Below are positions 1 to 20,711 of a DNA stretch of 64,000 bases, piece by piece. The notes under the pieces are model-generated. The model did no database searches and was not told the origin of the DNA. It saw only the letters and a list, made by a program, of their open reading frames with translations. How positions within the stretch are numbered: position 1 is the first letter of the stretch; each line of letters opens with the position of its first letter. Source of the DNA: Mayamaea pseudoterrestris (Eukaryota); assembly GCA_027923505.1 (NCBI GenBank), contig BROI01000001.1:744001-808000 (forward strand), read 5' to 3'. The position numbers and the translations under genes were made by a program.

Positions 1-3000
1 CGGCCTCCACGGTGGGTATGGCCAACACCACAAGTTGTCGATTCTGACCTGTCAAACGCCCCATGCCCTGGCCACCCAAATACCCAATGAGTCAGGCTAA
101 ACATGTCCAGGGTTTGCCATTGACAGGTGCAGAGTCTCAAATGGTGCAAAAAGGACTGCCTGGAGGCTGACACCATGGGTACGGCCTCCACGGTGGGTAT
201 GGCCAACACCACAAGTTGTCGATTCTGACCTGTCAAACGCCCCATGCCCTGGCCACCCAAATACCCAATGAGTCAGGCCAAACATGTCCAGGGAATGCCA
301 TTGACAGGTGCAGAGTCTCAAAGAAAAAGGACTGCCTGGAGGCTGACACCATGGGCACGGCCTCCACGGTGGGTTGCACACCGACTGCCTGTCAAACGCC
401 CCATGCCCTACCCAAATACCCAATGTCGGCAAAACATGTCCAGGGTATACCATTGACAGGTGCAGAGTCTCAAATGGTAAAAGGACTGTCTGGAGGCTGA
501 CACCATGGGTACGGCCTCCACGGTGGGTATGGCCAACACCACAAGTTGTCGATTCTGACCTGTCAAACGCCCCATGCCCTGGCCACCCAAATACCCAATG
601 AGTCAGGGCAAACATGTCCAGGGTATGCCATTGACAGGTGCAGAGTCTCAAATGGTGCAAAAAGGACTGCCTGGAGGCTGACACCATGGGTACGGCCTCC
701 ACGGTGGGTATGGCCAACACCACAAGTTGTCGATTCTGACCTGTCAAACGCCCCATGCCCTGGCCACCCAAATACCCAATGAGTCAGGCCAAAACATGCT
801 CCAGGGGAGCCACAGGGCAGAGTCTCAAATGGCGCAAAAAGGACTGCCTGGAGGCTGACACCATGGGTACGGCCTCCACGGGGGGTATGGGGCACAACAC
901 CATCTCTCGTCAAACGCCCCATGCCCTGGCCACCCAAATACCCAATGAGTCAGGCAAACATGTCCAGGGTATGCCATTGACAGGCAGAGTCTCAAATGGT
1001 GCAAAAAGGACTGCCTGGAGGTGACACCATGGGTACGGCCCCACGGTGGGTGTGGCTCCAACACCAAAGTTGCCGATCACCCTGTCAAACGCCCCGCCCG
1101 GGGGCCAAATACCCAATGAGTCAGGCCAAACATGTCCAGGGTATGCCATTGACAGGTGCAGAGTCTCAAATGGTGCAAAAGGGACTGCCTGGAGGCTGAC
1201 ACCATGGGTACGGCCTCCACGGTGGGTATGGCCAACACCACAAGCTGTCGATTCTGACCTGTCAAACGCCCCATGCCCTGGCCACCCAAATACCCAACGA
1301 GTCAGGCCAAACATGTCCAGGGTATGCCAATGACAGGTGCAGAGTCTCAAATGGTGCAAAAGGACTGCCTGGAGGCTGACACCATGGGTACGGCCCCACG
1401 GTGGGTAGGGGGCCAACACCACAAGTTGTCGATCCTGACCTGTCAAACGCCCCATGCCCTGGCCACCCAAATACCCAATGAGTCAGGCCAAACATGTCCA
1501 GGGTATGCCATTGACAGGTGCAGAGTCTCAAATGGTGCAAAAAGGACTGCCTGGAGGCTGACACCATGGGTACGGCCTCCACGGGGGGTATGGCCAACAC
1601 CACAAGTTCGGCGGCGGGAAGGTCTGGGGGGGCGGCCAATTCTGACCTGTCAAACGCCCCATGCCCTGGCCACCCAAATACCCAATGAGTCAGGCCAAAC
1701 ATGTCCAGGGTGGGCCCAATGACAGGGCAGGAGTCTCAAACGGGCAAAAGACGCCTGGAGGCCGACACCATGGGTACGGCTCCACGGTGGGTATGGCCAA
1801 CACCACAAGCTGCGACTGACCTGTCAAACGCCCCATGCCCCGGGCCACCCAAACACCCAATGAGTCAGGCAAAACATGTCCAGGGTATGCCATTGACAGG
1901 TGCAGAGTCTCAAATGGTCCAAAACTGCCTGGAGGTGACACAGGGTACGGCCTCCACGGGGGATGGCCCAACACCACAAGTGCGATTCTAACCCTGTCAA
2001 ACGCCCCATGCCCTGGCCACCCAAATACCCAATGAGTCAGGCCAAACATGTCCAGGGTATGTCTTTGACAGGTGAAGAGTCTCAAATGGTGCAAAAAGGA
2101 CTGCCTGGAGGCTGACACCATGGGTACGGCCTCCACGGGGGTGGCGGCCAACACTGCCGACCTGACCTGTCAAACGCCCCATGCCCTGGGCCACCCAAAA
2201 CCCAATGAGTCAGGCAAACACGTCCAGGGGACGCCACGACAGGGCAGAGTCCAAATGGTGCAAAAGGACCGCCTGGAGGCCGACACATGGGCACGGCTCC
2301 ACGGGGGTATGGCCAACACCACAAGCTGCCGATTCTGCCCTGCAAACGCCCCATGCCCTGGGCCACCCAAATACCCAATGAGTCAGGCCAAACATGTCCA
2401 GGGTAGGCCATTGACAGGAGCAGAGCCTCAAATGGTGCAAAAGGACTGCCTGGAGGCTGACACCATGGGTACGGCCCCACTGTGGGTAAGGCCACACCAC
2501 AAGTTGCCGATCTGACCTGTCACCAACGCCCCATGCCCTGGCCACCCAAATACCCGAGAGCAGGCCAAAACATGTCCAGGGTATGCCATTGACAGGGGCA
2601 GAGTCTCAAATGGTGCAAAAAGACGACTGCCTGGAGGCTGACACACAAGGACGCCCCCACGGGCGGGTATGGCCAACACCACAGTTGTCGATTTGACCTG
2701 TCAAACGCCCCATGCTCCCGGCCACCCAAACACCCAATGAGCCAGGCCAAACATGTCCAGGGTATGCCATTGACAGGGCAGGCGGGGTGCAAAAGGACCG
2801 CCTGGAGGCTGACACCATGGGTGCGGCCCCACGGGGGTAAGGGGCCAACACCACAGGCGATCGACCTGTCAAACGCCCCATGCCCTGGCCACCCAAAACA
2901 CCAATGAGTCAGCCAAACATGTCCAGGGCATGCCATTGACAGGTGCAGAGTCTCAAAATGGTGCAAAAAGGACCGCCTGAGGCTGACACCCGGGTGCGGC

Positions 3001-6000
3001 CCCACGGTGGGTGATGGGCCAACACCACAACTTGTCGATTTCTGACCTGTCAAACGCCCCACGCCCTGGCCACACCAAATACCCAATGAGTCAGGCCAAA
3101 CATGTCCTGGGTATGCCATTGACAGTGTGCAGAGTCTCAAATGGTGCAAAAAGGACTGCCTGGAGGCTGACACCACATGGGCACGGCCCCCACGGTGGGT
3201 ATGGCCAACACCACAAGTTGTCGATTCTGACCTGTCAACTGCCCCATGCCCTGGCCACCCAAATACCCAATGAGTCAGGCCAAACATGTCCAGGTTATGC
3301 CATTACAGGTGCAGAGGCTCAAAATGGTGCAAAAGGACTGCCTGGAGGCTGACACCAGAGTACGGCCTCCACGGTGGGTGGCGCAACACCACAAGTTGTC
3401 GCTGACCCCCGTCAAACGCCCCATGCCCGGCACAAATACCCAATGTCAGGCCAAACATGTCCCAAGTATGCCATTGACAGGCAGAGTCTAAATGGTGAAA
3501 AAGTGACTGCCTGAGGCTGACACCATGGGTACGGCTCTCCACGGTGGGTGGCGGGCCAACACCACAAGTTGTCGATTCCGACCAAACCATGCCCTGGCCA
3601 CCAATACCCAATGAGTCAGGCAAACATGTCCAGGGTATGCCATTGACAGGTGCAGAGTGCAGAAAGGACTGCCTGGAGGCTGACAATTACGGGTACGGCC
3701 TCCACAGTGGGTATGGCCACACACGTGCTGTCGATTCTGACCTGTCAAACGCCCCATGCCCTGGCCACCAAATACCCAATGAGTCGGTGCCAAACATGTC
3801 CAGGGTATGCCATTGACAGGTGCAGAGTCTCAAATGGTGCAAGACGCCTAGGCCACGACGGCCCACGGTGGGTATGGCCAACACCACAAGCTGCCGATTC
3901 TACCTGTCAAACGCCCCATGCCCTGGCCATCCAAATACCCAATGAGTCAGGCCAAACATGTCCAGGGTATGCCATTGACAGGTGCAGAGTCTCAAATGGT
4001 GCAAAAAGGACTGCCTGGAGGCTGACACCATGGGTACGGTCCACGGTGGGGCACAACACCACAAGTTGTCGACGGACCCGTCAAAGCCCCTGCCCTGGCC
4101 ACAAATACCCAATGAGTCACAGGCCAAACATGTCCAGGGTATGCCATCGACAGGTGCAGAGTTCCTGCACGAAGGGTACGGCCAGGGGTAAGAAGGACAG
4201 GGCCCAAACGCCCCATGCCCTGGCCACACCAAATACCCAATAAGGCAGCCAAACATGTCCAGGGGTATGCTATCATTGACAGGTGCAGAGTCTCAAATGG
4301 TGCAAAAGGGACTGCCTGAGGCTACACCTCTGTGCGGGTCGCCCTCCAGGGTGGGTATGGCCAACACCACAAAAGTTGTCATATCTCTGACCTGTCAAAC
4401 GCCCCATGCCCTGGCCACCCAAATACCCAATGAGTCAGGCCAAACATGTCCCGGGTATGCCATTGACAGGTAGAGTCTCAAATGGGCAAAAAACTGAAGC
4501 TAGGCTGACACCATTGGTACGGCCCACGGTGGGTGTGGGCCAACAGCACAGCTAGCCGCATCTCTGACCTGTCAAACCGCCCCCATGCCACCCAAATACC
4601 CCGATGAGCCAGGCCAAAACATGTCCAGGGTATGCATTGACATGCAGAGTCTCAAATGGTGCAAAAACGACTGCCTGGAGGCTGACCACCAAGCGGGTAC
4701 GGCCACGGGGGGTATGGCCAACACCACAGCAAGATCTGACCTGTCAAACGCCCCATGCCCTGGCCACCCAAATACCCAATGAGTCAGGCCAAACATGTCC
4801 AGGGTATGCCATTAACAGGTGCAGAGTCTCAAATGGTGCAAAAAGGACTGCCTGGAGGCTGACACCACTGGTACGGCCCCACGGCGAACTAACACCACGG
4901 TCGATCTGACCTGTCAAACGCCCCATGCCCCCACACCAAACACCAATAGAGCCAGGCCAAACATGTCCGGGTATGCCATTGACAGGTGGCAGTCTCAAAT
5001 GGTGCAAAAGGACTGCCTGGAGGCTGACACCCCACGGTGGGTATGGCCAACACCACAAGTTGTCGATTCTGACCTGTCAAACGCCCCATGCCCTAGCCAC
5101 CCAAATACCCAATGAGTCAGGCCAAACATGTCCAGGGTATGCCATTGACAGGTGCAGAGTCTCAAATGGTGCCAAAAGGACTGCCTGGAGGCTGACACCA
5201 TGGGTACGCCTCCACGGGGTGGGTAACGGGCTGCTAACACCACAAGTTGTAGATTCTGCCCTGTCAACCACCCCATGCCATGGGCACCCAAATACCCAAT
5301 GAGTCAAGCAAACATGTCCAGGTCCACAGGTGCAGAGTCTCAAATGGTGCAGCGACCGTCCTAGGCTGACACCATGGGCACGCCCCACGGGTGGGGTATG
5401 GCCAACGACCACCAAGCTGCAGATTCTTCCCTGTCAAACGCCCCATGCCCTGGCCACCCAAATACCCAATGAGTCAAGCCAAACATGTCCAGGGTATGCC
5501 ATTGACAGGTGCAGAGTCTCAAATGGTTGAAAAAGACTGCCTAGGCTGACACCATGGGTAAGGCTCTCCACGGTATGGCCAACACCACAAGTTGTCGATT
5601 CTGACCCGCGCCCCATGCCCTGGCCACCCAAAATACCCCAAAGAGTCAGGCCAAACATGTCCACGGTGGCGCATTGACAGGTGCAGAAAGGCCCCAATGG
5701 TGAAAAGGACCGCCTGACGCTGACACCATTGCACGGCCTCCGGTGGGTATGGCCAAACACCAGCGGTTGTCGATTCCTGACCTGTCAAACGCCCCGCATG
5801 CCCTGGCCACCCAAATCCAGGGTATGCCATTGGGTGCAGACTCCTCAAACGGGAAAGGACTGCCTGAGGCTGACACCATGGGTACGGCTCTCCACGGTGG
5901 GTATGGCGCACCACCACAAGCTGTCGACACCCGTCAACGCCCCATGCCCTGGGCCACCAATACCAAGCGAGCGTTGGGCAAACATGTCCAGGGTATGCCA

Positions 6001-9000
6001 TTGACAGACAATGGTGCAAAAGGACTGCTGGAGGCTGACAACATGGGCGGGGGCGCCAACACCACAAGTTGTCGATTCACTGTCAAACGCCCCATGCCCT
6101 GGCTCACCAAATACCAATAATTCAGGCCAAACATGTCCAGGGTATGCCATTGACAGGTGCAGCCCAATGGGCAAAAAGACTGCCTGGGAGGCTGACACCA
6201 TGGGTACGGCTCCACGGTGGGTGCGGCCACACCCAAGTTGCTCGACATTCTGACCTGTCAAACGCCCCATGCCCTGGCCACCAAATACCAATGAGTCAGA
6301 CCACATGTCCCGGGTATGCCATGACAGGCAGAAGTCCCAAATGGTGCAAAAAGGACTGCCTGGAGGCTGACACCATGGGTACGGCCTCCACGGTGGGTAT
6401 GGCCAACACCACAAGTTGTCGATTCTGACCTGTCAAACGCCCCATGCCCTGGCCACCCAAATACCCAATGAGTCAGACCAAACATGTCCAGGGTATGCCA
6501 TTGACAGGTGCAGAGTCTCAAATGGTGCAAAAAGGACTGCCTGGAGGCTGACACCATGGGTACGGCCTCCACGGTGGGTATGGCCAACACCACAAGTTGT
6601 CGATTCTGACCTGAAAAACGCCCCACGCCCTGGCCACCCAAATACCCAATGAGTCAGGCCAAACATGTCCAGGGTATGCCATTGACAGGTGCAGAGTCTC
6701 AAATGGTGCAAAAAGGACTGCCTGGAGGCTGACACACACGGCCTCCACGGTGGGTATGGCCAACACCACAAGTTGTGGATTATGACCTGTCAAACGCCCC
6801 ATGCCCTGGCCACCCAAATACCCAATGAGTCAGGCCAAACATGTCCAGGGTATGCCATTGACAGGAGCAGAGTCTCAAATGGTGCAAAAAGGACTGCCTG
6901 GAGGCTGACACCATGGGTACGGCCTCCACGGTGGGTATGGCCAACACACAAAGTTGTCGATTCTGACCTGTCAAACGCCCCATGCCCTGGCCACCCAAAT
7001 ACCCAATGAGTCAGGCAAAACATGTCCAGGGTATGCCATTGACAGGTGCAGAGTCTCAAATGGTGCAAAAAGGACTGCCTGGAGGCTGACACACACGGCC
7101 TCCACGGTGGGTATGGCCAACACCACAAGTTGTCGATTCTGACCTGTCAAACGCCCCATGCCCTGGCCACCCAAATACCCAATGAGTCAGGCCAAACATG
7201 TCCAGGGTATGCCATTGACAGGTGCAGAGTCTCAAATGGTGCAAAAAGGACTGCCTGGAGGCTGACACCATGGGTACGGCCTCCACTGTGGGTATGGCCA
7301 ACACCACAAGTTGTCGATTCTTCCCTGTCAAACGCCCCATGCCCTGGCCACCCAAATACCCAATGAGTCAGGCAAAACATGTCCAGGGTATGCCATTGAC
7401 AGGTGCAGAGTCTCAAATGGTGCAAAAAGGACTGCCTGGAGGCTGAAAACATGGGTACGGCCTCCACGGTGGGTATGGCCAACACCACAAGTTGTAGATT
7501 CTGACCTGTCAAACGCCCCATGCCCTGGCCACCCAAATACCCAATGAGTCAGGCAAAACATGTCCAGGGTATGCCATTGACAGGTGCAGAGTCTCAAATG
7601 GTGCAAAAGGACTGCCTGGAGGCTGACACCATGGGTACGGCCTCCACGGTGGGTATGGCCAACACCACAAGTTGTCGATTCTGACCTGTCAAACGCCCCA
7701 TGCCCTGGCCACCCAAATACCCAATGAGTCAGGCAAAACATGTCCAGGGTATGCCATTGACAGGTGCAGAGTCTCAAATGGTGCAAAAAGGACTGCCTGG
7801 AGGCTGACACCATGGGTACGGCCTCCACGGTGGGTATGGCCAACACCACAAGTTGTCGATTCTGCCCTGTCAAACGCCCCATGCCCTGGCCACCCAAATA
7901 CCCAATGAGTCAGGCAAAACATGTCCAGGGTATGCCATTGACAGGTGCAGAGTCTCAAATGGTGCAAAAGGACTGCCTGGAGGCTGACACCATGGGTACG
8001 GCCTCCACGGTGGGTATGGCCAACACCACAAGTTGTAGATTCTTCCCTGTCAAACGCCCCATGCCCTGGCCACCCAAATACCCAATGAGTCAGGCAAAAC
8101 ATGTCCAGGGTATGCCATTGACAGGTGCAGAGTCTCAAATGGTGCAAAAGGACTGCCTGGAGGCTGACACCATGGGTACGGCCTCCACTGTGGGTATGGC
8201 CAACACCACAAGTTGCAGATTCTTCCCTGTCAAACGCCCCATGCCCTGGCCACCCAAATACCCAATGAGTCAGGCAAAACATGTCCAGGGTATGCCATTG
8301 ACAGGTGCAGAGTCTCAAATGGTGCAAAAAGGACTGCCTGGAGGCTGACACCATGGGTACGGCCTCCACTGTGGGTATGGCCAACACCACAAGTTGTAGA
8401 TTCTTCCCTGTCAAACGCCCCATGCCCTGGCCACCCAAATACCCAATGAGTCAGGCAAAACATGTCCAGGGTATGCCATTGACAGGTGCAGAGTCTCAAA
8501 TGGTGCAAAAGGACTGCCTGGAGGCTGAAAACATGGGTACGGCCTCCACTGTGGGTATGGCCAACACCACAAGTTGCAGATTCTTCCCTGTCAAACGCCC
8601 CATGCCCTGGCCACCCAAATACCCAATGAGTCAGGCAAAACATGTCCAGGGTATGCCATTGACAGGTGCAGAGTCTCAAATGGTGCAAAAAGGACTGCCT
8701 GGAGGCTGAAAACATGGGTACGGCCTCCACTGTGGGTATGGCCAACACCACAAGTTGTAGATTCTTCCCTGTCAAACGCCCCATGCCCTGGCCACCCAAA
8801 TACCCAATGAGTCAGGCAAAACATGTCCAGGGTATGCCATTGACAGGTGCAGAGTCTCAAATGGTGCAAAAGGACTGCCTGGAGGCTGACACCATGGGTA
8901 CGGCCTCCACGGTGGGTATGGCCAACACCACAAGTTGTAGATTCTTCCCTGTCAAACGCCCCATGCCCTGGCCACCCAAATACCCAATGAGTCAGGCAAA

Positions 9001-12000
9001 ACATGTCCAGGGTATGCCATTGACAGGTGCAGAGTCTCAAATGGTGCAAAAAGGACTGCCTGGAGGCTGAAAACATGGGTACGGCCTCCACTGTGGGTAT
9101 GGCCAACACCACAAGTTGCAGATTCTTACCTGTCAAACGCCCCATGCCCTGGCCACCCAAATACCCAATGAGTCAGGCAAAACATGTCCAGGGTATGCCA
9201 TTGACAGGTGCATAGTCTCAAATGGTGCAAAAAGGACTGCCTGGAGGCTGACACCATGGGTACGGCCTCCACGGTGGGTATGGCCAACACCACAAGTTGC
9301 AGATTCTTCCCTGTCAAACGCCCCATGCCCTGGCCACCCAAATACCCAATGAGTCAGGCAAAACATGTCCAGGGTATGCCATTGACAGGTGCAGAGTCTC
9401 AAATGGTGCAAACGGACTGCCTGGAGGCTGACAACATGGGTACGGCCTCCACTGTGGGTATGGCCAACACCACAAGTTGTAGATTCTTCCCTGTCAAACG
9501 CCCCATGCCCTGGCCACCCAAATACCCAATGAGTCAGGCAAAACATGTCCAGGGTATGCCATTGACAGGTGCAGAGTCTCAAATGGTGCAAAAAGGACTG
9601 CCTGGAGGCTGACACCATGGGTACGGCCTCCACTGTGGGTATGGCCAACACCACAAGTTGCAGATTCTTACCTGTCAAACGCCCCATGCCCTGGCCACCC
9701 AAATACCCAATGAGTCAGGCAAAACATGTCCAGGGTATGCCATTGACAGGTGCAGAGTCTCAAATGGTGCAAAAGGACTGCCTGGAGGCTGACACCATGG
9801 GTACGGCCTCCACTGTGGGTATGGCCAACACCACAAGTTGTAGATTCTTCCCTGTCAAACGCCCCATGCCCTGGCCACCCAAATACCCAATGAGTCAGGC
9901 AAAACATGTCCAGGGTATGCCATTGACAGGTGCAGAGTCTCAAATGGTGCAAAAAGGACTGCCTGGAGGCTGACACCATGGGTACGGCCTCCACGGTGGG
10001 TATGGCCAACACCACAAGTTGTCGATTCTTCCCTGTCAAACGCCCCATGCCCTGGCCACCCAAATACCCAATGAGTCAGGCAAAACATGTCCAGGGTATG
10101 CCATTGACAGGTGCAGAGTCTCAAATGGTGCAAAAAGGACTGCCTGGAGGCTGACACCATGGGTACGGCCTCCACTGTGGGTATGGCCAACACCACAAGT
10201 TGCAGATTCTGCCCTGTCAAACGCCCCATGCCCTGGCCACCCAAATACCCAATGAGTCAGGCAAAACATGTCCAGGGTATGCCATTGACAGGTGCAGAGT
10301 CTCAAATGGTGCAAAAAGGACTGCCTGGAGGCTGACACCATGGGTACGGCCTCCACTGTGGGTATGGCCAACACCACAAGTTGCAGATTCATCCCTGTCA
10401 AACGCCCCATGCCCTGGCCACCCAAATACCCAATGAGTCAGGCAAAACATGTCCAGGGTATGCCATTGACAGGTGCAGAGTCTCAAATGGTGCAAAAAGG
10501 ACTGCCTGGAGGCTGACACCATGGGTACGGCCTCCACTGTGGGTATGGCCAACACCACAAGTTGCAGATTCTTCCTGTCAAACGCCCCATGCCCTGGCCA
10601 CCCAAATACCCAATGAGTCAGGCAAAACATGTCCAGGGTATGCCATTGACAGGTGCAGAGTCTCAAATGGTGCAAAAAGGACTGCCTGGAGGCTGACAAC
10701 ATGGGTACGGCCTCCACTGTGGGTATGGCCAACACCACAAGTTGCAGATTCTTACCTGTCAAACGCCCCATGCCCTGGCCACCCAAATACCCAATGAGTC
10801 AGGCAAAACATGTCCAGGGTATGGCATTGACAGGTGCAGAGTCTCAAATGGTGCAAAAAGGACTGCCTGGAGGCTGACACCATGGGTACGGCCTCCACTG
10901 TGGGTATCACCCAAATACCCAATGAGTCAGGCCAAACATGTCCAGGGGATGCCATTGACAGGTGCAGAGTCTCAAATGGTGCAAAAAGGACTGCCTGGAG
11001 GCTGAAACCATGGGTACGGCCTCCACGGTGGGTATGGCCAACACCACAAGTTGCAGATTCTTCCCTGTCAAACGCCCCATGCCCTGGCCACCCAAATACC
11101 CAATGAGTCAGGCCAAACATGTCCAGGGTATGCCATTGACAGGTGCAGAGTCTCAAATGGTGCAAAAAGGACTGCCTGGAGGCTGACAACATGGGTACGG
11201 CCTCCACTGTGGGTATGGCCAACACCACAAGTTGCAGATTCTTCCCTGTCAAACGCCCCATGCCCTGGCCACCCAAATACCCAATGAGTCAGGCAAAACA
11301 TGTCCAGGGTATGCCATTGACAGGTGCAGAGTCTCAAATGGTGCAAAAGGACTGCCTGGAGGCTGAAAACATGGGTACGGCCTCCACTGTGGGTATGGCC
11401 AACACCACAAGTTGCAGATTCTTCCCTGTCAAACGCCCCATGCCCTGGCCACCCAAATACCCAATGAGTCAGGCAAAACATGTCCAGGGTATGCCATTGA
11501 CAGGTGCAGAGTCTCAAATGGTGCAAAAAGGACTGCCTGGAGGCTGACACCATGGGTACGGCCTCCACTGTGGGTATGGCCAACACCACAAGTTGCAGAT
11601 TCTTACCTGTCAAACGCCCCATGCCCTGGCCACCCAAATACCCAATGAGTTAGGCAAAACATATCCAGGGTATGCCATTGACAGGTGCATAGTCTCAAAT
11701 GGTGCAAAAAGGACTGCCTGGAGGCTGACAACATGGGTACGGCCTCCACTGTGGGTATGGCCAACACCACAAGTTGCAGATTCTTCCCTGTCAAACGCCC
11801 CATGCCCTGGCCACCCAAATACCCAATGAGTTAGGCAAAACATGTCCAGGGTATGCCATTGACAGGTGCAGAGTCTCAAATGGTGCAAAAAGGACTGCCT
11901 GGAGGCTGACAACATGGGTACGGCCTCCACTGTGGGTATGGCCAACACCACAAGTTGCAGATTCTTCCCTGTCAAACGCCCCATGCCCTGGCCACCCAAA

Positions 12001-12030
12001 TACCCAATGAGTAAGGCAAACATGTCCAGG
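1..12030. repeat. Tandem satellite array, 180/181-bp monomer, about 66 copies, open at the left edge of the window
   Basis: Monomer cggcctccacggtgggtatggccaacaccacaagttgtcgattctgacctgtcaaacgcc...ctggaggctgacaccatgggta recurs at 1, 182, ... up to ~12030. About 55% GC with only 4 CpG per monomer. Units are near-identical at 6340-12030 and carry many private indels at ~300-6300. Confidence 0.99.
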
Positions 12031-12100
12031 GTGGTTGAGGGTGGTGCAAAAGGCTGCCTGTGACATGGGGTTGCTGGAATTGGCAACACTTGCAGCATAT
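12010..12100. repeat. Degenerate terminal copy of the satellite monomer
   Basis: ccagggt...tggtgcaaaaggctgcctgtgacatggggt...tggcaacacttgcag is collinear with monomer segments ccagggt/tggtgcaaaaaggactgcctg/tgacaccatgggt/tggccaacac/ttgcag. Confidence 0.7.
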
Positions 12101-12381
12101 GGCTCATATGTGTCTCCTGTCCCCTCATGGCATTTAGCCTGCCACTGGGATGGCTCATTTCATCTGTGCGGCAAACACATAAGTGACACCCTTCAACTTT
12201 GAGTTTTGCTGCAGCTTTCCACCTCCTCTGCACCAGCACACACCACCATTATGGCAGTCCTATGTACCTTGAACACATGATTATACTACTACAACAATTC
12301 TGCATAATTTTTAAATCCATTACATAGCCTGGATTACATTTTTTCCCATCCATTCGCTCACAGTTTTTGGAGCTTGCAGCA

Positions 12382-13334
12382 CTACATATTATTGTAGTTT
12401 ACATTGAACAAGGGCTCACCATTCTCGATTGCAAGCTGAGTGACTACGGCAACAGCACGGAACATTGAAGATTGTTTTGATGGATCATGCCGAAAGACTT
12501 GCTTCAAGCAGCCCCATTGCTTGAAACGCTTGTTCACGGTTTCATGCCTCGCCCGCACTCGCTTGGTCAAGGCAACACGTGCAGCACCTTCAGCAAACCG
12601 ACGTGGTGCCACCACAAACTGAGGACACTCTCCAGCATATCCATCATCAGCCTCCACCCTTTCACCTTGGCTCAGCATTCCCTTCAAAGCCTGGCGAAAA
12701 ATCTTGATGTCAGGCCAGTCACCGCAAGGAAACGGTCCAGAAATCCACACAATATGACCTGTAAGAATGCAAAGCGCAACTTCCCAGCGCAGGCCTGGCC
12801 CATTAAATTTATGGGAGTACCACCCTTTCCAAAATGGTTGAAACTGTTGAATGCGAAAGTCAGTGCCATCCACTGAAACCAGGCAATCATTTCCAACGTC
12901 ATTTTGAAGGCGGTTTTCCCAAAGAATCTGTGGAGCAGCATGGGAATAACTGCATGAGAATTGAAAGAAACAAGTAGACAAATTGGAGCTTTACCAGCCA
13001 AACTTACCACTTGATTCTCCGAGAATGAGATTTGATCAATGAAAAGCCAGCTCCACTTTGAAAAGGTCTTCTCGTCAACTCCACCAGCCAAGGAAACTAT
13101 TGCACGCTCAGGGAGATAGAGTTTCATATGCATCAAGCCCCATAACAGATGCTTTGGTTTGGCTCTCTTGTGTATGAACCTTTCAGGTTCAAGTTTGGCC
13201 CAAAGGATGCTGCAAATTGCAGGTGTGGTTCCAAATGTCGAGCGGAAGCGTTGGTCAGTTTGGCCAGTGACGCGGTGGCCATGGCGCGACATTATCTCAT
13301 TGCCAATGCCAACAAAATGCTCTAATGGAACCAT
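12382..13334 (-). CDS. PIF/Harbinger-superfamily DDE transposase (DDE_Tnp_4-like), 2 exons, ~290 aa
   Basis: Exons 13334-13008 and 12927-12382 are joined by an 80-nt GTAAGT...CAG intron (ENQV|ILWENR). Motifs: FRSTFG, VSVDGTD (D1), YSHKF, GPFPCG, EADDGY (D2), RARHETVNKRFK (E). No stops or frameshifts. Confidence 0.88.
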
Positions 13335-13533
13335 TCTAGCTGCTGCACTAGTGACAAGTTAAAAGAAGCTTAGTAAAGTTTGTGGATGCCTCATCAATGG
13401 CATGATGGTCTGCACGATCAAGTCTTCGATGCGATGGCATCGTTCACGACGGCAAGGAATCGAGCGTGGAAGGCGTGCGCGTCGCTCTGCCACGCACTCT
13501 TGTGAACGAGCACTTCTCACGGACCACGACACA

Positions 13534-13966
13534 AATTGACATTTTTACATATGCCTGATTAAGTGGCATATGTGCCAAATGACGTCATAAGTGACATATG
13601 TGACTCATGCTGACAGGTGTCGCATGTGAGGCATATGTCGACATATGTCACATGTGTCGCATATGTCACATATGCGATTTTTCAAGCAGCATAAAGTCTG
13701 CAACAAAACAGCTACAACCAAAAAGTAAATAGGTGATTATTTACCTCTACCATTGCTTTATCTGATGACATATTGCTGGTTGCAATCAGAGGTCTATAGG
13801 TGACAAAATGGTGGATTGAAAATGGCTGTTTTTCATGCATCGACATAAGTCGCATGTGTGACACCTGTTGACACGTGTCACATATGTCACATATGTCAAC
13901 ATATGCCCCTTGCGTCACATGTGATGTCAATGGCGATAAAAGGCATATCTAAAGAAAATGTCAATT
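13534..13966. promoter_or_regulatory. Imperfect inverted repeat with 10 CATATG motifs in the divergent intergenic region
   Basis: aattgacatttt (13534-13545) pairs with aaaatgtcaatt (13955-13966). gtgacatatgtgac (13591-13604) pairs with gtcacatatgtcac (13877-13890). acaggtgtc pairs with gacacctgt. The arms flank an AT-richer ~150-bp spacer. Confidence 0.8.
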
Positions 13967-14150
13967 CACTTTCGCCGTCCATTGTGACACGTGTTGCACG
14001 GCGAAATGTGACGTGTCGACTGCTGCAGCAATCAAGACTGCGCGGCCGTGTCATCGCTTGTCACGACAGCAACACCATCAGTCGATCAAACACGAACAAG
14101 TTGCTTACTTTTGACCCATTCTCAACAACAGCACACAATATTACTTGACA

Positions 14151-15322
14151 ATGCCTGCTGGGCGCTGGCAATCAAAGGTTGAAGGAGCTAATCTTTGTGC
14201 ATTGTTTGATCGGAAGGAAGCTGACCCACACAAGGCGGACGACACGAATTACATCCACCAAGTCCAGCAGCTCAACAGTCGGCTCTTTGGTCACGTTGAA
14301 CCCCGCAATTGGCTCAACAACTACCGGCGCACGGCGCGAGATTATTTAACAAACAAGCAAGCTCAAGGAGGTCGTCATCAACCTCTGCCGCCTCCAGTTC
14401 TGCCTCCAGGCCATCTTCAACCAAGTGCGCCAGGTAAGTAGCGACTTGCGAAACATCAAAGTGTCATTTTCAAGTACTCACTCATATTAATTCCTCCATT
14501 TCTGCAGACGAGTCAGAAGACGAGTCGTACTCCTTGACCACCGGTAGTGTCGAGTCGGAAGAGTTGACTCAGGTTGACGATATTGACAGCAAGGAACTCG
14601 ACAGCATCGGCCAAGTCAGTGTCATCAACATGCCGTCGCCTCACAAGCCTTCTCCTGGTGTGAATGGTACATTTCACAACCTTGTTTGTGGTCCCTACAT
14701 CAATGAAGTTGGAGATTTTGAATTGCAAGTCCGAGTCCTTGCACACTCTGGCATGCTACCCGAATATGTCACGGTCAAGCTTTCCAATGATCGGCGCTCA
14801 TTGCTTGTTCTGCAGCGTGTACCTGATGAGTTCTATGACGCGCAAATTGTTGCGGCAGAATTCTTTGGGCCTTGTGGTATGGGATCAGCAGTGACAGCCG
14901 CCTTTCGTCAAGCTGTACAGCGAGTTCGTGCCACCGACAAGGAGCCTGTCTTTGTTGGGAATGGCGACTACATCTGCCTTGGGCACCAGGTTGAGCAGCT
15001 TTCAGAAAATTCTACTGAGATCATTGTACTGCCAACTAAGAAGGGCAAAACTACCTTGCATGTCATCAAAGTAACACTTCAGCTGCCTCGAACTGGTTAC
15101 AAGACGCCAAACGCACCAGTGCTGCGAGTCATTCATCCGTATGCATCACCGCCAGCCGCTGCAGCTGCAGGGCCAGTTCTGCCGGACGTTCCAAGAGGCT
15201 TATTTGCAGCTGGGCAGGCAAAATTGGAACGGGTGATAGAAGGCGTGGTGCCTTTTTTTGCCACTCTACTGTTCTGCTACTTTTTCAATTTGGTTTACGG
15301 TTGGTCAAAATACGTGTTTTAG
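14151..15322 (+). CDS. Unknown ~365-aa protein, probable second ORF of the Harbinger-like element, 2 exons
   Basis: ATG at 14151. Exon 1 ends at 14433, intron GTAAGT...TGCAG spans 14434-14507, exon 2 is in frame to 15322. It is divergent from the transposase, and Harbinger elements typically carry a second gene. N-terminal W/F-spaced helical segment, acidic linker, hydrophobic C-terminal tail. Confidence 0.65.
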
Positions 15323-15396
15323 GAAACCAATCAATGTCGCTTTCAAACATTGTTGAGATAGATTGTATGTAATTAGCTATCTCTATAACAATAAAG

Positions 15397-16107
15397 TTGG
15401 ACGAATACGCTCGCGTCGATATTACAGCATCACTCTCAGCCGAGGACTTAGCGCAACTCGAAATTGTTTCCAAAACAACCCAAGCGAAAAGACAAACACC
15501 GGCCACCGCAGACAAAGCACGCAAGCGCCCGCCGCCAACAGACCTCTTGACGGATCTGATTCGCGAGCGGTTTCAGACACAAGCCTCCAGTCCATCGCTA
15601 GTCAAGCATCACGCCGAGCAGCAGGCGACTCAAGCAAACCTTGTGGATCAGCCGCAGAAGGAGTCGGCATGGCTCGCAATTGAACGCAAGCGGAAGGCAG
15701 ACGGGAGTTCCAGTTTAGCAAAGAAACTGCAATACAACGAGCATTGGGACGACAGCGATGGCTCAGTGGAAGTTACAGATGTACGTCGCCCACCGACACA
15801 CCCAGCTACACCACCACGAGTCCAACTTCGCCAGCACCATTCTCAAACCGCAGCCAAGCCCTTTAGCTCATCGGGCCTCTTCCTCCCATACGAACAAGAA
15901 AGGTCGCTTCCGCAAGTCCTTTCTTACACGACAACGCTCAATGCAGTCGAGCCTTATACCGATCCTGTTCTACGCGTCGTGTCAAGTATTCGGATTGACA
16001 CGACGCAAGGAATCTGCTCTTTCTCTCTCAATTTCTCGATTCTTTCACTCTTTCTCTTTCGCACAGCTCTCTCAGGTCAAGACAAGCTAGCAAGACTGTT
16101 AATCTGA
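15397..16107 (+). other. Open frame without ATG start; possible gene fragment or atypical upstream ORF of the retroelement
   Basis: 236 codons open with basic patches (KARKRPP, RKRK). No CCHC knuckle or other recognisable domain. Confidence 0.25.
15974..16006. other. Perfect 12-bp stem hairpin
   Basis: gcgtcgtgtcaa-gtattcgga-ttgacacgacgc. Confidence 0.85.
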
Positions 16108-16448
16108 CACGATAATATCAGACGAACCTTTATTCCAGCGACTACAATGGACTCGGAGCGATCAACCTCTTCGTCCAGCGTAAAGCAAACAAACAAACTC
16201 AATTGCTAGAATAGTGCATGTTACTCGCTACTCTACTCGTGCGCTTCTTTCTCGTTCTCACTGGGTTCACGGTCGAGGTTCACTTTGCCCTCGATCGTCA
16301 GCATTTCACTCATGTATGTGATGATCTGGTCAGCAAGTGTGACTCAACCCTGCACGATTAAAAGTACAAAACACAGGTAGCTAACCGCCGTCAGAGACGC
16401 AGGTCAACTCAACTCAATACATATTGTGTCACATCTTCTTCACCAAGG

Positions 16449-19400
16449 ATGCGCTCTACTAAAGTTAAAGTGGAAGTGGGCAGTTGGGCGAACAGTTCAG
16501 TCGCCCCAGAGTGTCAGCCCAGCATGCAACCAAGCGAGTTGCCAGTACCCGTCATGCCGACTTCAACCACTCCAGTTGCTAGTCGAGTGGAACCAGCCGT
16601 TCCTAGTCCTGTCATCTCTGGAATCATGGATCCTTATGTCTTTCTGTTGACTCTAACGCCACAAGAGACTGCAGCTCTGCCTGCTTGGATTCGATCAACA
16701 ATGCGAGCTATCCGCCGCAACGGCCACGCATCCTCTATTGGAGACGACAAATCCTTCAAGGAACGAGTCTTTCCAGTCATTTGGGATACTGGAGCAAGTA
16801 TATCTATCTCATACGAGCGCTCTGACTTTGTCGGTCCCATTGAACCGTCTCCAAACAACGATCGCGTCAGTGGTCTCACGGATGGAGCCAAGATCGAGGG
16901 GAGAGGCTGTGTCGCCTGGACTTTCCTTGATAATGGAGGCATGCTCAGAACATTAAAGCTGCCTGCCTACTACATTCCGGCTGCTACAGTCCGCTTGCTG
17001 AGTATAAGCAGCGTTCTGCAGCAATACCCTGAGGAATTCATCTATGGCGACGAACGAGCCATCTTCCTGAGTGGAACCGTTTCAACCACTCACTCCGACG
17101 GATCCATAACCAACAATGGAATAGAAGTTCTGGTGGATCCTGCATCTAACTTGCCGACCGGGTATGCCTACGATACCTCGTCTCCTTCTGCATCTGCCTA
17201 TCGGGCAAGCGAGTTGTCGGCGCTGCCTGGATCGCCACCAGGCCCCGAGCCAGCTCCAAATGCGTCAAATGCACCTCCAGGCAATACTGGAAGGCATCAA
17301 AATAGCAATCTCGGTGGATCTTGTCAAACAAGGGCGCATGGTTTCTTGCCTGGGTCCGCACAAGGCAGAGGTCCCAGCTCGAATTCACGTCAATTGCCAA
17401 GTGGCCCGCAAGTCTACTCGGTTGCTATGCCTTCTCCATTGCCGCCTCCTGTGGTAGCTTCCAATAATGCTAATATAACGGAAGCAGAGAAGGAGCTTCT
17501 GCGGTGGCATTACCGTCTTGGCCATCTAGCCAAGGCGAGGATCCAGTTCCTAATGAAGGGAGGCATCCTAGCTCAATCAGAGGGACAACGGCGCCTACAC
17601 GCCGCAAGCTCGAGGCTAGTTAATCCTCCTCTTTGCGCTGCCTGCCAGTATGCTAAACAAAGGCTGCGTTCTGCTCCCGGTAACAAGTCAACTGCGGTCA
17701 AGGATCGAGTTGGAGCGTTGCGCCGCAACGACGTGTTTCCAGGGCAACAAGTTAGCGTTGACCATTTCATTTGCTCAACCAAAGGCAGACTCTTCTCCTC
17801 TCGAGGCAAGACGCAAGAAGCTGATCTTTACTGCGGTGGTTGCATCTTTGTGGACCACGCCTCTGGCTACGTCTTCATCTACTTCCAGCGGCATTTAACC
17901 ACCGACGAGACCCTTGCCGCAAAGGAGGCATTCGAGCTATCCTGCCGCGACTATGGAGTCATCCCTCAAGAGTATCTTTCTGATAATGGACGTGCCTTTG
18001 CGTCCAAAGCATTTGCCCAGCATCTTGCAGTGTTCTCCCAGATCAACAAGTTTGCCGGCGTCGGCGCCCACCACCACAATGGAATCGCCGAGCGCTCCAT
18101 TCAAACGATCATGGCAATCACTCGCGCTATGATGCTACACGCCTCTATACACTGGCCTGAGCTATCTGATCTATCGCTCTGGCCAATGGCGTGCCAATAT
18201 GCCGCGTTCCTGTGGAACAAGATGCCCGACTTGCACTCAGGGATCAGTCCACACGACTTGTTTACGCGCACTCGATGGCCTCACTTGCGCTTCCATGACC
18301 TTCATGTATGGGGATGCCCAGTCTATATACTGGAGAAGCGTCTATCCGATGGTCAGAAGCTGCCGCGCTGGTCGCCTCGCTCCAAGCGCTGCGTCTTTGT
18401 CGGTATGAGTGACGCGCACGCAAGCTCCGTTCCTTTGGTCCTCAATCCAGAAACCGGAGCCATTACACCTCAGTTTCATGTGGTCTTTGATGACTACTTT
18501 AGCACGGTATCATCTGATCCTGGCAGCTTGCCAGATTTCGAGACGGACGAGTGGCGCAAGCTCTTTGGCGACAGCTCCTATCAGTATATCCCCATTGACG
18601 AGGATGGAGCCGACCAAGAGACTTCAACTGGCGTGCCTCCTATTCCTGAAGCTGCTATTCAGCAAAAGGATCGAGTGGAAGCCGCCTTTGAAACCAATCG
18701 TCCATCCCATCCATTGCCTGGCGAGCCGGCCCCAAGCGAGCCAACCGGCGACTCATTGCATGATCCCGCCGACACGACCGACGATGGTTCTGGTCTCGCA
18801 AGGGCGCAGGATGACAGTTCTCCGCCTGCAAGGGCGTCAAGTCCAACTTTTGATACCACCGCTTCGGCCATTTCAGCAGACTCGTCTTCAGCTAGCGCAC
18901 CTACACGACATAACGCTGTGACACCAAGTCCATCAAGCTCGCAAATGGACACACCAAGACGATCTTCTCGTTCTAATATGGGCCAACTGCCTCAGCGGCT
19001 TACCTACATTAGTCCTGGGCATCAAGCAAACATTCTCTATCAGTTGCCGTCTGCCGAAGCAGCGCATTTCTCGGCGTTATTCTCCGCCTTCAATGTTTCC
19101 GCCCCTGCTATTTACAAGGCAGCGGCCACTGATCCTGATACACTCACTTGGGATCAAGCTATGCGTGATCATCCTCACCAAGCTGATTGGGTTAAAGCAG
19201 CAGTCGCTGAGATCACGTCTCTCCAGAATAAAGGGACGTGGATCGAAGTGCCCAAGTCTTCCGCCACAAGCAAGATCATCCCTGGCACCTGGGTCTTCCG
19301 CCGCAAGCGCTCGCCTGATGGAGTCATTAAGAAGTACAAAGCTCGCTTCTGTGTTAGAGGAGATTTGGAGGAAGGAACGTTCGATACCTTCTCTCCAGTT

Positions 19401-20711
19401 GTTGCGTGGTCAACGATTCGCCTCCTGTTGGTATTTGCCCTTACGCTCGATTGGCATGCTTGCACCATTGACTTCTCCAGTGCCTTTGTCCAAGCTAAAC
19501 TCGACAAGCCAGTATGGATTCACATTCCTCGTGGTTTTGGCTCAAGCCTTGGCCCCGACCATTGCCTCTGCTTAAAGAAGAGCCTTTACGGACTGTCCGT
19601 CGCCCCGCGCCTTTGGTTTGAACACCTCACCCGCGCATTCAAGTCGCTCGGTTTAAAACAAAGCGAATTTGATCAATGCCTCTTCTTTGGCACTTCTTTT
19701 ATCTGCGCTTGTTTTGTTGACGACATTTTGTTCATCTCTAAGTGCCCCAAGAGCGTCGACGCCTTTGTCGAGCGCCTCAGCTCCATGGGATTCGAGTTAA
19801 CAAAGGAAGACTCGCTTTGCGATTACCTCGGCATTAAACTCGTCCGCGACACTGCCAACGGTTCCTACAAGCTTACTCAGCAAGGATTAATTGACAAGAT
19901 TCTTGTTGCTACTGGTTTGACGGAATCAAATCCAAACGCCGTCCCAGCGACTCAACTCGCGCTCGGTACCGACCCCGACGGGGACTGCATGCGCGAGAGC
20001 TGGTCCTACCCTTCTATCGTTGGTATGCTTCTCTATCTTGCTATCAACTCGCGCCCTGACATTGCTTATGCTGTTAGTCAAGTCGCTCGCTTCAACCACG
20101 GTCCTAAACAGAGCCACGCGAAGGCCGTCAAAACGATCGTCCGTTATTTGCGAGGCACTCGCAACGTGGGGACCGTCATGAAACCAGATGGATCCTTCAA
20201 TCTGGACCTTTATACAGACGCAGACTATGCTGGTCTCTATAAACAAGAACCCGACCATTCAACTATGGCGGTTCGTTCTCGTACAGGCTACATCATTCTT
20301 CTCGGTGGATGCCCGCTCATTTGGAAGAGCCAGTTGCAAACGGAAATTGCACTCTCTACTCTGGAAGCAGAATATTGCTCTTTGTCTCTGGGATTAAAGA
20401 CTCTCCTTCCTCTCAAGCGCATCCTTATTGAGGTACTACAAGTGCTTCGCCTTCCTAGTCCTACGGCTACTTGCGTGAGCGCTCGTGCCTACCAAGACAA
20501 TCAAGGCGCTTATTATCTCGCCACCAACCAGCGCTTAACCAATCGCACCAAGCACATGCTAGTCAAGTTCCATTGGTTCTGGTTGCATTACAAACGAGGC
20601 GAGTTTAGTATCTCCATGGTTAAATCAGCCGACCAATTGGCCGACTACTTGACCAAGGGACTTGCCAAGGATCTGTTCCTCAAGAATCGTCTCAGCGTTC
20701 AACACTGCTAA
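16449..20711 (+). mobile_element. Ty1/copia (CoDi-like) retrotransposon pol ORF, PR-IN-RT-RNase H, 1420 aa
   Basis: Protease WDTGAS. Integrase Zn finger WHYRLGH...CAAC and catalytic VSVDH/SDNG/IAERS. RT YKARFCVRG, LKKSLYGL, FVDD. RNase H YTDAD, STLEAEY, DNQGA, RTKH, LADYLTK. Copia domain order, uninterrupted. Confidence 0.96.

Follow-up and report, generated by a model that had tools for sequence, protein, structure and literature searches.

Introduction

Harbinger-type transposases and their partner genes are known as components of mobile elements, the PIF/Harbinger two-gene elements, and as host genes, the vertebrate pair HARBI1/NAIF1 and the plant pair ALP1/ALP2 being domesticated Harbinger pairs. 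Satellites, for their part, are reportedly born from mobile elements in some animals, as with the tandem-repeat-containing MITEs (miniature inverted-repeat transposable elements) of Donax and the Helentron-carried arrays of oyster. Here we describe a stretch of 64,000 nucleotides from the diatom Mayamaea pseudoterrestris (contig BROI01000001.1, positions 744,001 to 808,000 of the forward strand; hereafter the window, with positions counted from its first letter), in which the edge of a 181-bp satellite array lies next to a Harbinger-type transposase gene and a divergent partner gene. These are probably three neighbours and not one module, with a coding Harbinger pair that has no element ends lying at the border between satellite and gene-rich DNA.

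The pair resembles PIF/Harbinger two-gene elements in having a DDE transposase of the PF13359 kind, a co-inherited second gene, short repeated motifs and relatives that bear terminal inverted repeats (TIRs). It differs from them in that the window copy is without TIRs, its repeats sit between the divergent genes, exon 2 of its transposase reaches PF01609 only, and its partner combines an unannotated three-helix domain and a hydrophobic tail with no Myb/SANT domain recognisable by Pfam or PDB sequence search. With HARBI1/NAIF1 and ALP1/ALP2 it shares genes derived from a transposase and from its partner, the lack of termini, low copy number and intact reading frames; unlike those pairs, the window genes have stayed side by side like those of a transposon, and they have recent paralogues in one cluster. 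The Donax and oyster satellites are paralleled by an array beside a transposon, a palindromic monomer and short tandem repeats flanking relatives, but here the monomer has no sequence link to the element, no element ends enclose the array, and the repeat is genome-wide.

Harbinger-like elements were noted in Thalassiosira pseudonana in a passage of PMC2806351. PMC9724779 reports an assembly of 30.6 Mb in which repeats, chiefly Ty1-Copia, make up 19%; the words 'satellite' and 'tandem' do not occur in the main text of that article. Putative diatom centromeres, in Phaeodactylum and Fistulifera, are described in passages of 10.1101/2021.11.10.468027 as short, low in GC and devoid of highly repeated elements.

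The satellite array and its edge

Tandem Repeats Finder resolved positions 1-12032 into a tandem array of head-to-tail monomers with a period of ~181 bp. A BLAST comparison of one monomer with the window returned 71 segments, all 71 on the plus strand and all 71 inside 1-12032, and zero segments in the remaining 52 kb (12033-64000). Because the array reaches the left edge of the window, it may exceed its visible length. Two halves can be distinguished on the plus strand: an older half at 1-6322, which runs off the left edge and whose monomers are 79-95% identical to the reference monomer (84% mean pairwise identity), and a homogeneous half at 6328-12032, which adjoins the transposase gene and whose monomers are 92-100% identical to the reference (96% mean pairwise). 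Tandem Repeats Finder reported a period of 181 over 1-10907 (61.1 copies, 80% matches), a period of 361 over 6055-10907 (13.5 copies, 97% matches) and a period of 181 over 10908-12032 (6.2 copies, 97% matches). The 361-bp period arises from monomer lengths of 180 and 181 nt that mostly alternate, and the single register break of the homogeneous half, located by BLAST at 10907/10908, is a 53-nt deletion joint at which the monomer halts at monomer position 78 and restarts at 132. Each monomer contains an imperfect palindrome (CCTGTCAAACG..CCCTGG / CCAGGG..CATTGACAGG). Its 16-nt arm, ATGCCATTGACAGGTG, matches 59 times with at most three mismatches, always in the array, against 0.93 matches expected; at the same tolerance the full arm has no match outside the array in the window.

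The final good monomer (97%) stops at 12032. It is followed on the plus strand by a decayed, deletion-riddled terminal monomer at 12033-12129, which local alignment places in register with the array and which can be traced to ~12129; this decayed edge suggests that the array border is old. The initial annotation had described a tandem array of more than 12 kb that ends in a degenerate monomer ~300 bp beyond the transposase stop codon, and both statements hold, the distance between the array edge (12032/12129) and the stop codon (12382-12384) measuring 250-350 bp. GC content is 54-60% in the array and 45-51% in the following 4 kb. A further suggestion, that the repeats act as structured RNAs, was rejected: a monomer dimer barely folds better than its shuffles (z = -2.1; equally good folds in 3 of 100 shuffles), so that there is no case for a structured RNA from the monomer, and scans of the whole window gave no Rfam match at gathering score and no transfer RNA gene. 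The array and gene-pair features described here are all far above chance expectation.

Abundance of the satellite and of the gene pair

Four public sequencing runs (X1-X4) were compared with positions 11850-16500 of the window. Summed word depth, which is not a calibrated copy number, reached 2.2e6 in X1, 1.9e7 in X2, 1.9e6 in X3 and 1.2e5 in X4 for the monomer bin, against 15-152, 340-1084, 86-303 and 0-5, respectively, for positions 12162-15905. Within each of the four runs, satellite and gene island are thus separated by a gap of ~10,000-fold in these uncalibrated terms. One shared non-satellite sequence (ending ...GGAATCATACCACTACAAT) precedes the monomer at 11978 in all four runs, and therefore other array borders or shared insertions exist. 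The 181-bp satellite is the dominant satellite of the genome and a genome-wide major repeat. The linkage between array and transposase put forward when the locus was first annotated is not supported by this comparison: the depth excess and the other flanks indicate a satellite mostly unlinked to the transposase, an outcome that the annotation itself had named as refuting.

Low-copy contigs of two runs, which come from different studies, end at the identical base 12066, where repeat-like words start, and 15905 is where the low-copy contigs from all four runs stop. Among the contigs listed for the four runs, none bridges 12032-12066, and short-read contigs break there, as would be seen if the junction at ~12030-12130 were an assembly misjoin between collapsed satellite and an unrelated unique contig. 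Such a misjoin is nevertheless very unlikely: over 12033-12129 the array passes gradually, through the decayed monomer, into unique sequence, and the agreement on base 12066 between contigs from two studies speaks against it as well. The run contigs showed no joints matching the introns of the pair. One X2 contig that joins 11972 to 16105 was set aside as repeat noise, its shorter side having only 27 letters.

Relationship between the array and the gene pair

The initial annotation proposed that the array is a hugely expanded subterminal part of a giant transposon, which would carry the satellite inside itself and move it along. Adjacency and orientation at this single locus are what favours this reading. 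No TIRs were found around the gene pair in the window, and the comparison of 12033-12400 with 15323-15960 revealed no inverted similarity (score 17; shuffles 19 +/- 2). The monomer does not occur in either orientation to the right of 12129 within the window, and the array is not enclosed by element ends there. Local alignments of the monomer with both flanks, with the centre between the two genes taken as a whole and with the termini of relatives remained at the level of shuffled sequences; the sequence shared between monomer and element is limited to pieces of 9-10 nt. Together with the ~10,000-fold excess of the satellite over the pair in summed depth, with its occurrence beside other flanks, with the proper ends seen in some relatives, and with the high-copy repeat, Ty1/copia sequence and ordinary genes that follow the pair on its right, these results make a giant satellite-carrying transposon extremely improbable, and we regard the proposal as already largely refuted.

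The transposase gene

The transposase is encoded on the minus strand at 13334-13008 and 12927-12385. Exon 1 (13008-13334), with its ATG at 13334, contributes 109 residues; an 80-nt GT..AG intron (12928-13007), delimited by reading frame and splice sites, separates it from exon 2 (12382-12927), which contributes the 181 residues of the DDE catalytic core and ends in the stop codon at 12382-12384. The spliced product has 290 residues with an intact D/D/E triad. The gene is therefore not uninterrupted, contrary to what had been stated, although its description as an intact DDE transposase of Harbinger type is upheld by the invariant D/D/E residues and by homologues with PF13359. Exon 1 is supported by its translation, which in a tblastn search matches relatives' loci upstream of their exon-2 match, and by an N-terminus that agrees by eye with that of P0047 in alignment A2. 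Several homologous predicted proteins read through the intron at the identical position. The 3' flank of the gene (12130-12381, minus strand) is low-copy, the low-copy contigs of two runs beginning at 12066, and has no inverted match to 15323-15960.

In Pfam, exon 2 reaches PF01609 (DDE_Tnp_1) weakly, at 24.2 bits against a cutoff of 23, and does not reach PF13359 (DDE_Tnp_4); membership in Harbinger rests, for this reason, on the homologues. At E <= 0.001 these comprise 1021 sequences of near-identical length and 43 longer ones, mostly 50-65% identical to exon 2, and many of those at 55-65% identity carry PF13359, a match to which is also found in 5 of 12 aligned members. In alignment A2 the residues D20, D94 and E129 do not vary, and the window transposase has all three. 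The nearest transposases, P0046 (94%) and P0047 (85%), are from Mayamaea pseudoterrestris, and a PDB sequence search with transposase profile A2 returned nothing meaningful. At the level of sequence, these homologies support assignment of the transposase to the PIF/Harbinger kind.

In two relatives' loci, L007 and L009, the transposase exons are contiguous, with no intron, while most other loci have a gap of 60-130 nt at this place. The intronless loci could reflect intron loss or contigs derived from RNA.

The partner gene

The partner gene lies on the plus strand. Exon 1 (14151-14433) encodes a conserved N-terminal three-helix domain without a Pfam family, identified by profile search and AlphaFold2; a 74-nt phase-1 GT..AG intron (14434-14507) follows; and exon 2 (14508-15322, stop codon at 15320-15322) encodes an acidic linker, a poorly modelled middle domain and a hydrophobic C-terminal tail. 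The product has 365 residues, and its splice junction recurs identically in two proteins annotated for Mayamaea pseudoterrestris: P0044 and P0045, to which exon 2 is 88% and 55% identical, respectively (90% to P0044 in alignment A1). Exon 1, by contrast, is nearer to P0045 (80%, vs 67% to P0044), a mosaic that hints at exchange between paralogues. P0044-P0047, two of them partner-like and two transposase-like, carry consecutive locus tags (7100-7400) on one 423,632-bp contig, and their order fits one pair nested in the centre of another.

A profile search with the partner against 1.84 billion representatives yielded 21 proteins at E <= 0.001, namely P0045 and 20 others. Of these 20, 19 match only the first ~75 residues, which correspond to exon 1; P0166 (472 residues) matches the profile in two stretches. 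The shortness of most N-domain proteins in the database is due to gene callers that break off at the intron. The consensus of the domain over ~75 residues reads RW..EGaaL..LF..G.aDP...RNF.NNYRR.A.eYL..G.RR, and neither proteins P0166-P0185 nor the window partner carry a Pfam family at E <= 1 beyond noise.

AlphaFold2, run with 23 sequences, modelled the N-domain as a three-helix bundle (helices at 8-20, 32-46 and 51-73) with a predicted local distance difference test (pLDDT) score of 83.7. Fold comparison returned generic matches with Z scores below the level of trust, the best being FF domains (5.9), followed by homeodomains (~5). Foldseek returned nothing against the PDB at E <= 0.001 for the N-domain, a PDB sequence search with partner profile A3 found no match, and a search of the ESM Atlas with exon 2 found no usable match. 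The model of the full-length partner (4 sequences) had a pLDDT of 37 and was unusable, and prediction of a complex between P0047 and residues 1-325 of P0044 scored 0.00 and gave no answer. The hydrophobic tail, with Kyte-Doolittle means over 19 residues of 1.76-2.21 (1.76 in the window), is present in the window partner and both Mayamaea proteins and is not in P0166.

The region shared by the two genes

The two genes diverge from an 816-bp region (13335-14150) in which Tandem Repeats Finder and an inverted-repeat search revealed short TGTCACATATG-type repeats. These make up two inverted arms of 79 nt (13563-13641 and 13840-13918) that are 72% complementary, which confirms the palindromic intergenic region common to the transposase and the spliced gene that had been noticed at first inspection. 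The 421 nt at 13540-13960 contain 10 copies of CATATG and 12 of TGTCA/TGACA. In many of the relatives' loci, tandem repeats of 18-44 nt occupy the corresponding place, immediately ahead of the transposase start (for example L011, L019, L025, L028, L050, L055, L071 and L078). Because so many relatives bear tandem repeats in the equivalent position, the palindromic centre is a feature of the lineage, and we infer that the 816-bp region is a putative binding and control region for both proteins.

Gene pairing and mobility in relatives

As relatives we used 80 metagenome loci that encode relatives of the transposase, and scanned their six-frame translations with a hidden Markov model (HMM) of the N-domain. 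In the first round 7 of the 80 loci matched, and in 6 of these 7 the N-domain lay immediately upstream of the transposase, on the other strand; after one iteration, of the 19 loci that offer 1300 nt or more of upstream sequence, 6 showed the divergent arrangement. First-round E-values for five divergent loci ranged from 1e-12 to 6e-5, whereas L021 was recovered in the second round only, with a weak 0.006. L076 gave a partial N-domain match, and in L001 the N-domain lies downstream, on the same strand as the transposase. In L025, L019 and L001 the N-domain exon is immediately followed by weak matches to the profile of the C-terminal part. The divergent partner gene of the first annotation is thus borne out and, to judge by this recurrent arrangement, the spliced gene is a true partner, conserved in the lineage at the family level.

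Flanking inverted repeats were found in 3 of the 22 loci of at least 3 kb: 156 nt in L025, 147 nt in L069 and 58 nt in L028. The flanks of L069 and L028 show no clear target-site duplication. Taken with the 1021 homologues of near-identical length and the 43 longer ones, these terminal repeats mark the Harbinger lineage as real and as mobile elsewhere.

Sequence to the right of the pair

The low-copy right flank of the pair (15323-15905) resembles neither the monomer nor the left flank, and ends with the low-copy contigs of all four runs. It is succeeded by a high-copy dispersed repeat of ~525 bp (15906-16430) that is not part of the Harbinger pair: its summed depth is 2e3-1.9e5, vs tens to hundreds for the island, and other copies have different flanks at ~15908 and ~16419. 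In X2 and X3, contigs continue for 681 further letters past 15905 that are not on the window, and therefore the insertion may be absent or different there.

At 16449-20711 on the plus strand lies an intact open reading frame (ORF) of 1420 residues for a Ty1/copia-type polyprotein, with the Pfam families RVT_2, rve, gag_pre-integrs and SH3_retrovirus. No pair of long terminal repeats (LTRs) or direct repeat for this ORF was found in the window; the repeat at 15906-16430 stands directly upstream of it, and no matching LTR copy stands behind it in the window. The block of repeats ends abruptly, as 22264-64000 is ordinary gene-dense DNA, with genes for a patatin-like lipase (DUF3336), an AAA ATPase, a lysine methyltransferase, a WD40/Utp12 protein, an aspartyl protease and an ABC transporter.

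Discussion

In the reading that we favour, 1-12129 is the edge of a large array of the dominant 181-bp satellite, 12130-15905 is a 3.8-kb low-copy island holding a coding-intact, TIR-less copy of a diatom-specific PIF/Harbinger lineage, and from 15906 a high-copy repeat and a Ty1/copia ORF lead over to ordinary genes. The analysis demonstrates this anatomy, the pairing of the two genes across the family, termini that relatives have and the window copy does not, the island's low copy number and the great surplus of satellite. The partner is built of a three-helix N-domain, then an acidic linker and a C-terminal domain, to which a hydrophobic tail is added in this genus; its N-domain may bind the short repeats and recruit the transposase, as in other Harbinger systems. 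Being without termini, the copy could not move itself, and the pair may be a stranded autonomous copy that still supplies proteins in trans, or a case of domestication at an early stage. Its position beside the satellite would be explained by the tendency of mobile elements to pile up at the border of repeat-rich chromatin.

Several observations weigh against this reading. The linkage between pair and satellite was viewed at one genome locus only, and the most homogeneous monomers adjoin the transposase, which is unusual for the edge of an array. Pieces of 9-10 nt from the palindrome arm occur at 6 sites outside the array, 3 of the 6 in the 816-bp centre, although this motif was picked after the data had been seen, in a centre where TGTCA/TGACA is frequent. 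Of the 51 loci that extend 300 nt or more downstream, ~9 have, by our reading, tandem repeats on the 3' side of the transposase. In L025, on the transposase side (L025:3156-3396), 61 nt of a 180-nt palindromic unit recur at a 180-nt offset. Finally, the coding differences listed between window and runs comprise 7 synonymous changes and 5 mostly conservative replacements (12 listed, with 104 further ones not shown); with both genes intact, these listed differences fit selection better than a dead copy.

This last point bears on the view that the pair is a domesticated Harbinger pair whose members are now host genes and may act on the satellite. They could, for instance, bind the palindromic arms, and the tail-anchored partner could fasten the satellite to a membrane. 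No termini surround the pair, the pair is low-copy, both frames and the D/D/E residues are intact, synonymous differences outnumber replacements by 7 to 5 in the partial list, the hydrophobic tail is found in the window and both Mayamaea proteins and is absent from P0166, and motif pieces are common to the monomer arm and the control region. We nonetheless consider domestication unlikely, because paralogues 85-94% identical exist within one genus, where four clustered genes look recently copied, and because relatives elsewhere bear termini. Orthology or synteny across species is not evidenced, the full 16-nt arm does not occur outside the array at up to three mismatches, and the motif statistic is post hoc.

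The L025 unit is the starting point for a link by ancestry, in which the satellite would be an amplified ~180-bp palindromic terminal or subterminal unit of a Harbinger element that later spread alone, leaving the pair as the remnant of its source. About 1.3 copies of that unit are present before the contig ends, the opposite end of the contig holds one in inverted orientation (L025:3-158), and the period of the unit resembles that of the window's 181-bp monomer, which likewise has an internal palindrome; several relatives have tandem repeats 3' of the transposase, the side on which the array lies in the window. The sequence of the unit does not resemble the monomer, however, and the monomer finds no match in the 80 relatives' loci and is unlike the window flanks, the centre as a whole and the relatives' termini. 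No inverted monomer stands on the far side of the pair, a period of 180 nt is common among satellites, and the parallel is based on one relative, so that we hold such an ancestry to be quite improbable. A more far-reaching proposal combines both ideas: the Harbinger system would have made, or would still keep, the major satellite, a ~180-bp terminal unit having been amplified and the tail-anchored partner and transposase recognising ATGCCATTGACAGGTG and the control-region motifs, thereby tethering satellite chromatin. We would put little faith in it, somewhat less than in ancestry by itself.

The reading of three neighbours leaves the satellite to be considered in its own right. As a dominant satellite, it raises the question of a centromere function, and the named diatom centromeres serve that comparison only: unlike them, the window satellite is GC-rich (54-60%), tandem with a 181-bp period and very abundant, and no shared feature has been shown. 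A giant satellite-carrying transposon would be striking if true, but the data oppose it, and binding of the satellite by the pair, or a link by ancestry, is a long shot. Were the combined proposal above to prove true, the pair would organise or tether the satellite's chromatin in a lineage of diatoms among whose relatives centromeres are free of satellite.

For the biology of diatoms, the locus reveals a widespread Harbinger lineage of fixed architecture, in which divergent two-exon genes surround a repeat-filled centre. The N-domain, named by no family library, helps to annotate many diatom proteins now called 'hypothetical', and is a candidate DNA-binding domain. The window also presents a small diatom genome with a very abundant GC-rich 181-bp satellite, which contrasts with the short AT-rich centromeres described in passages of 10.1101/2021.11.10.468027.

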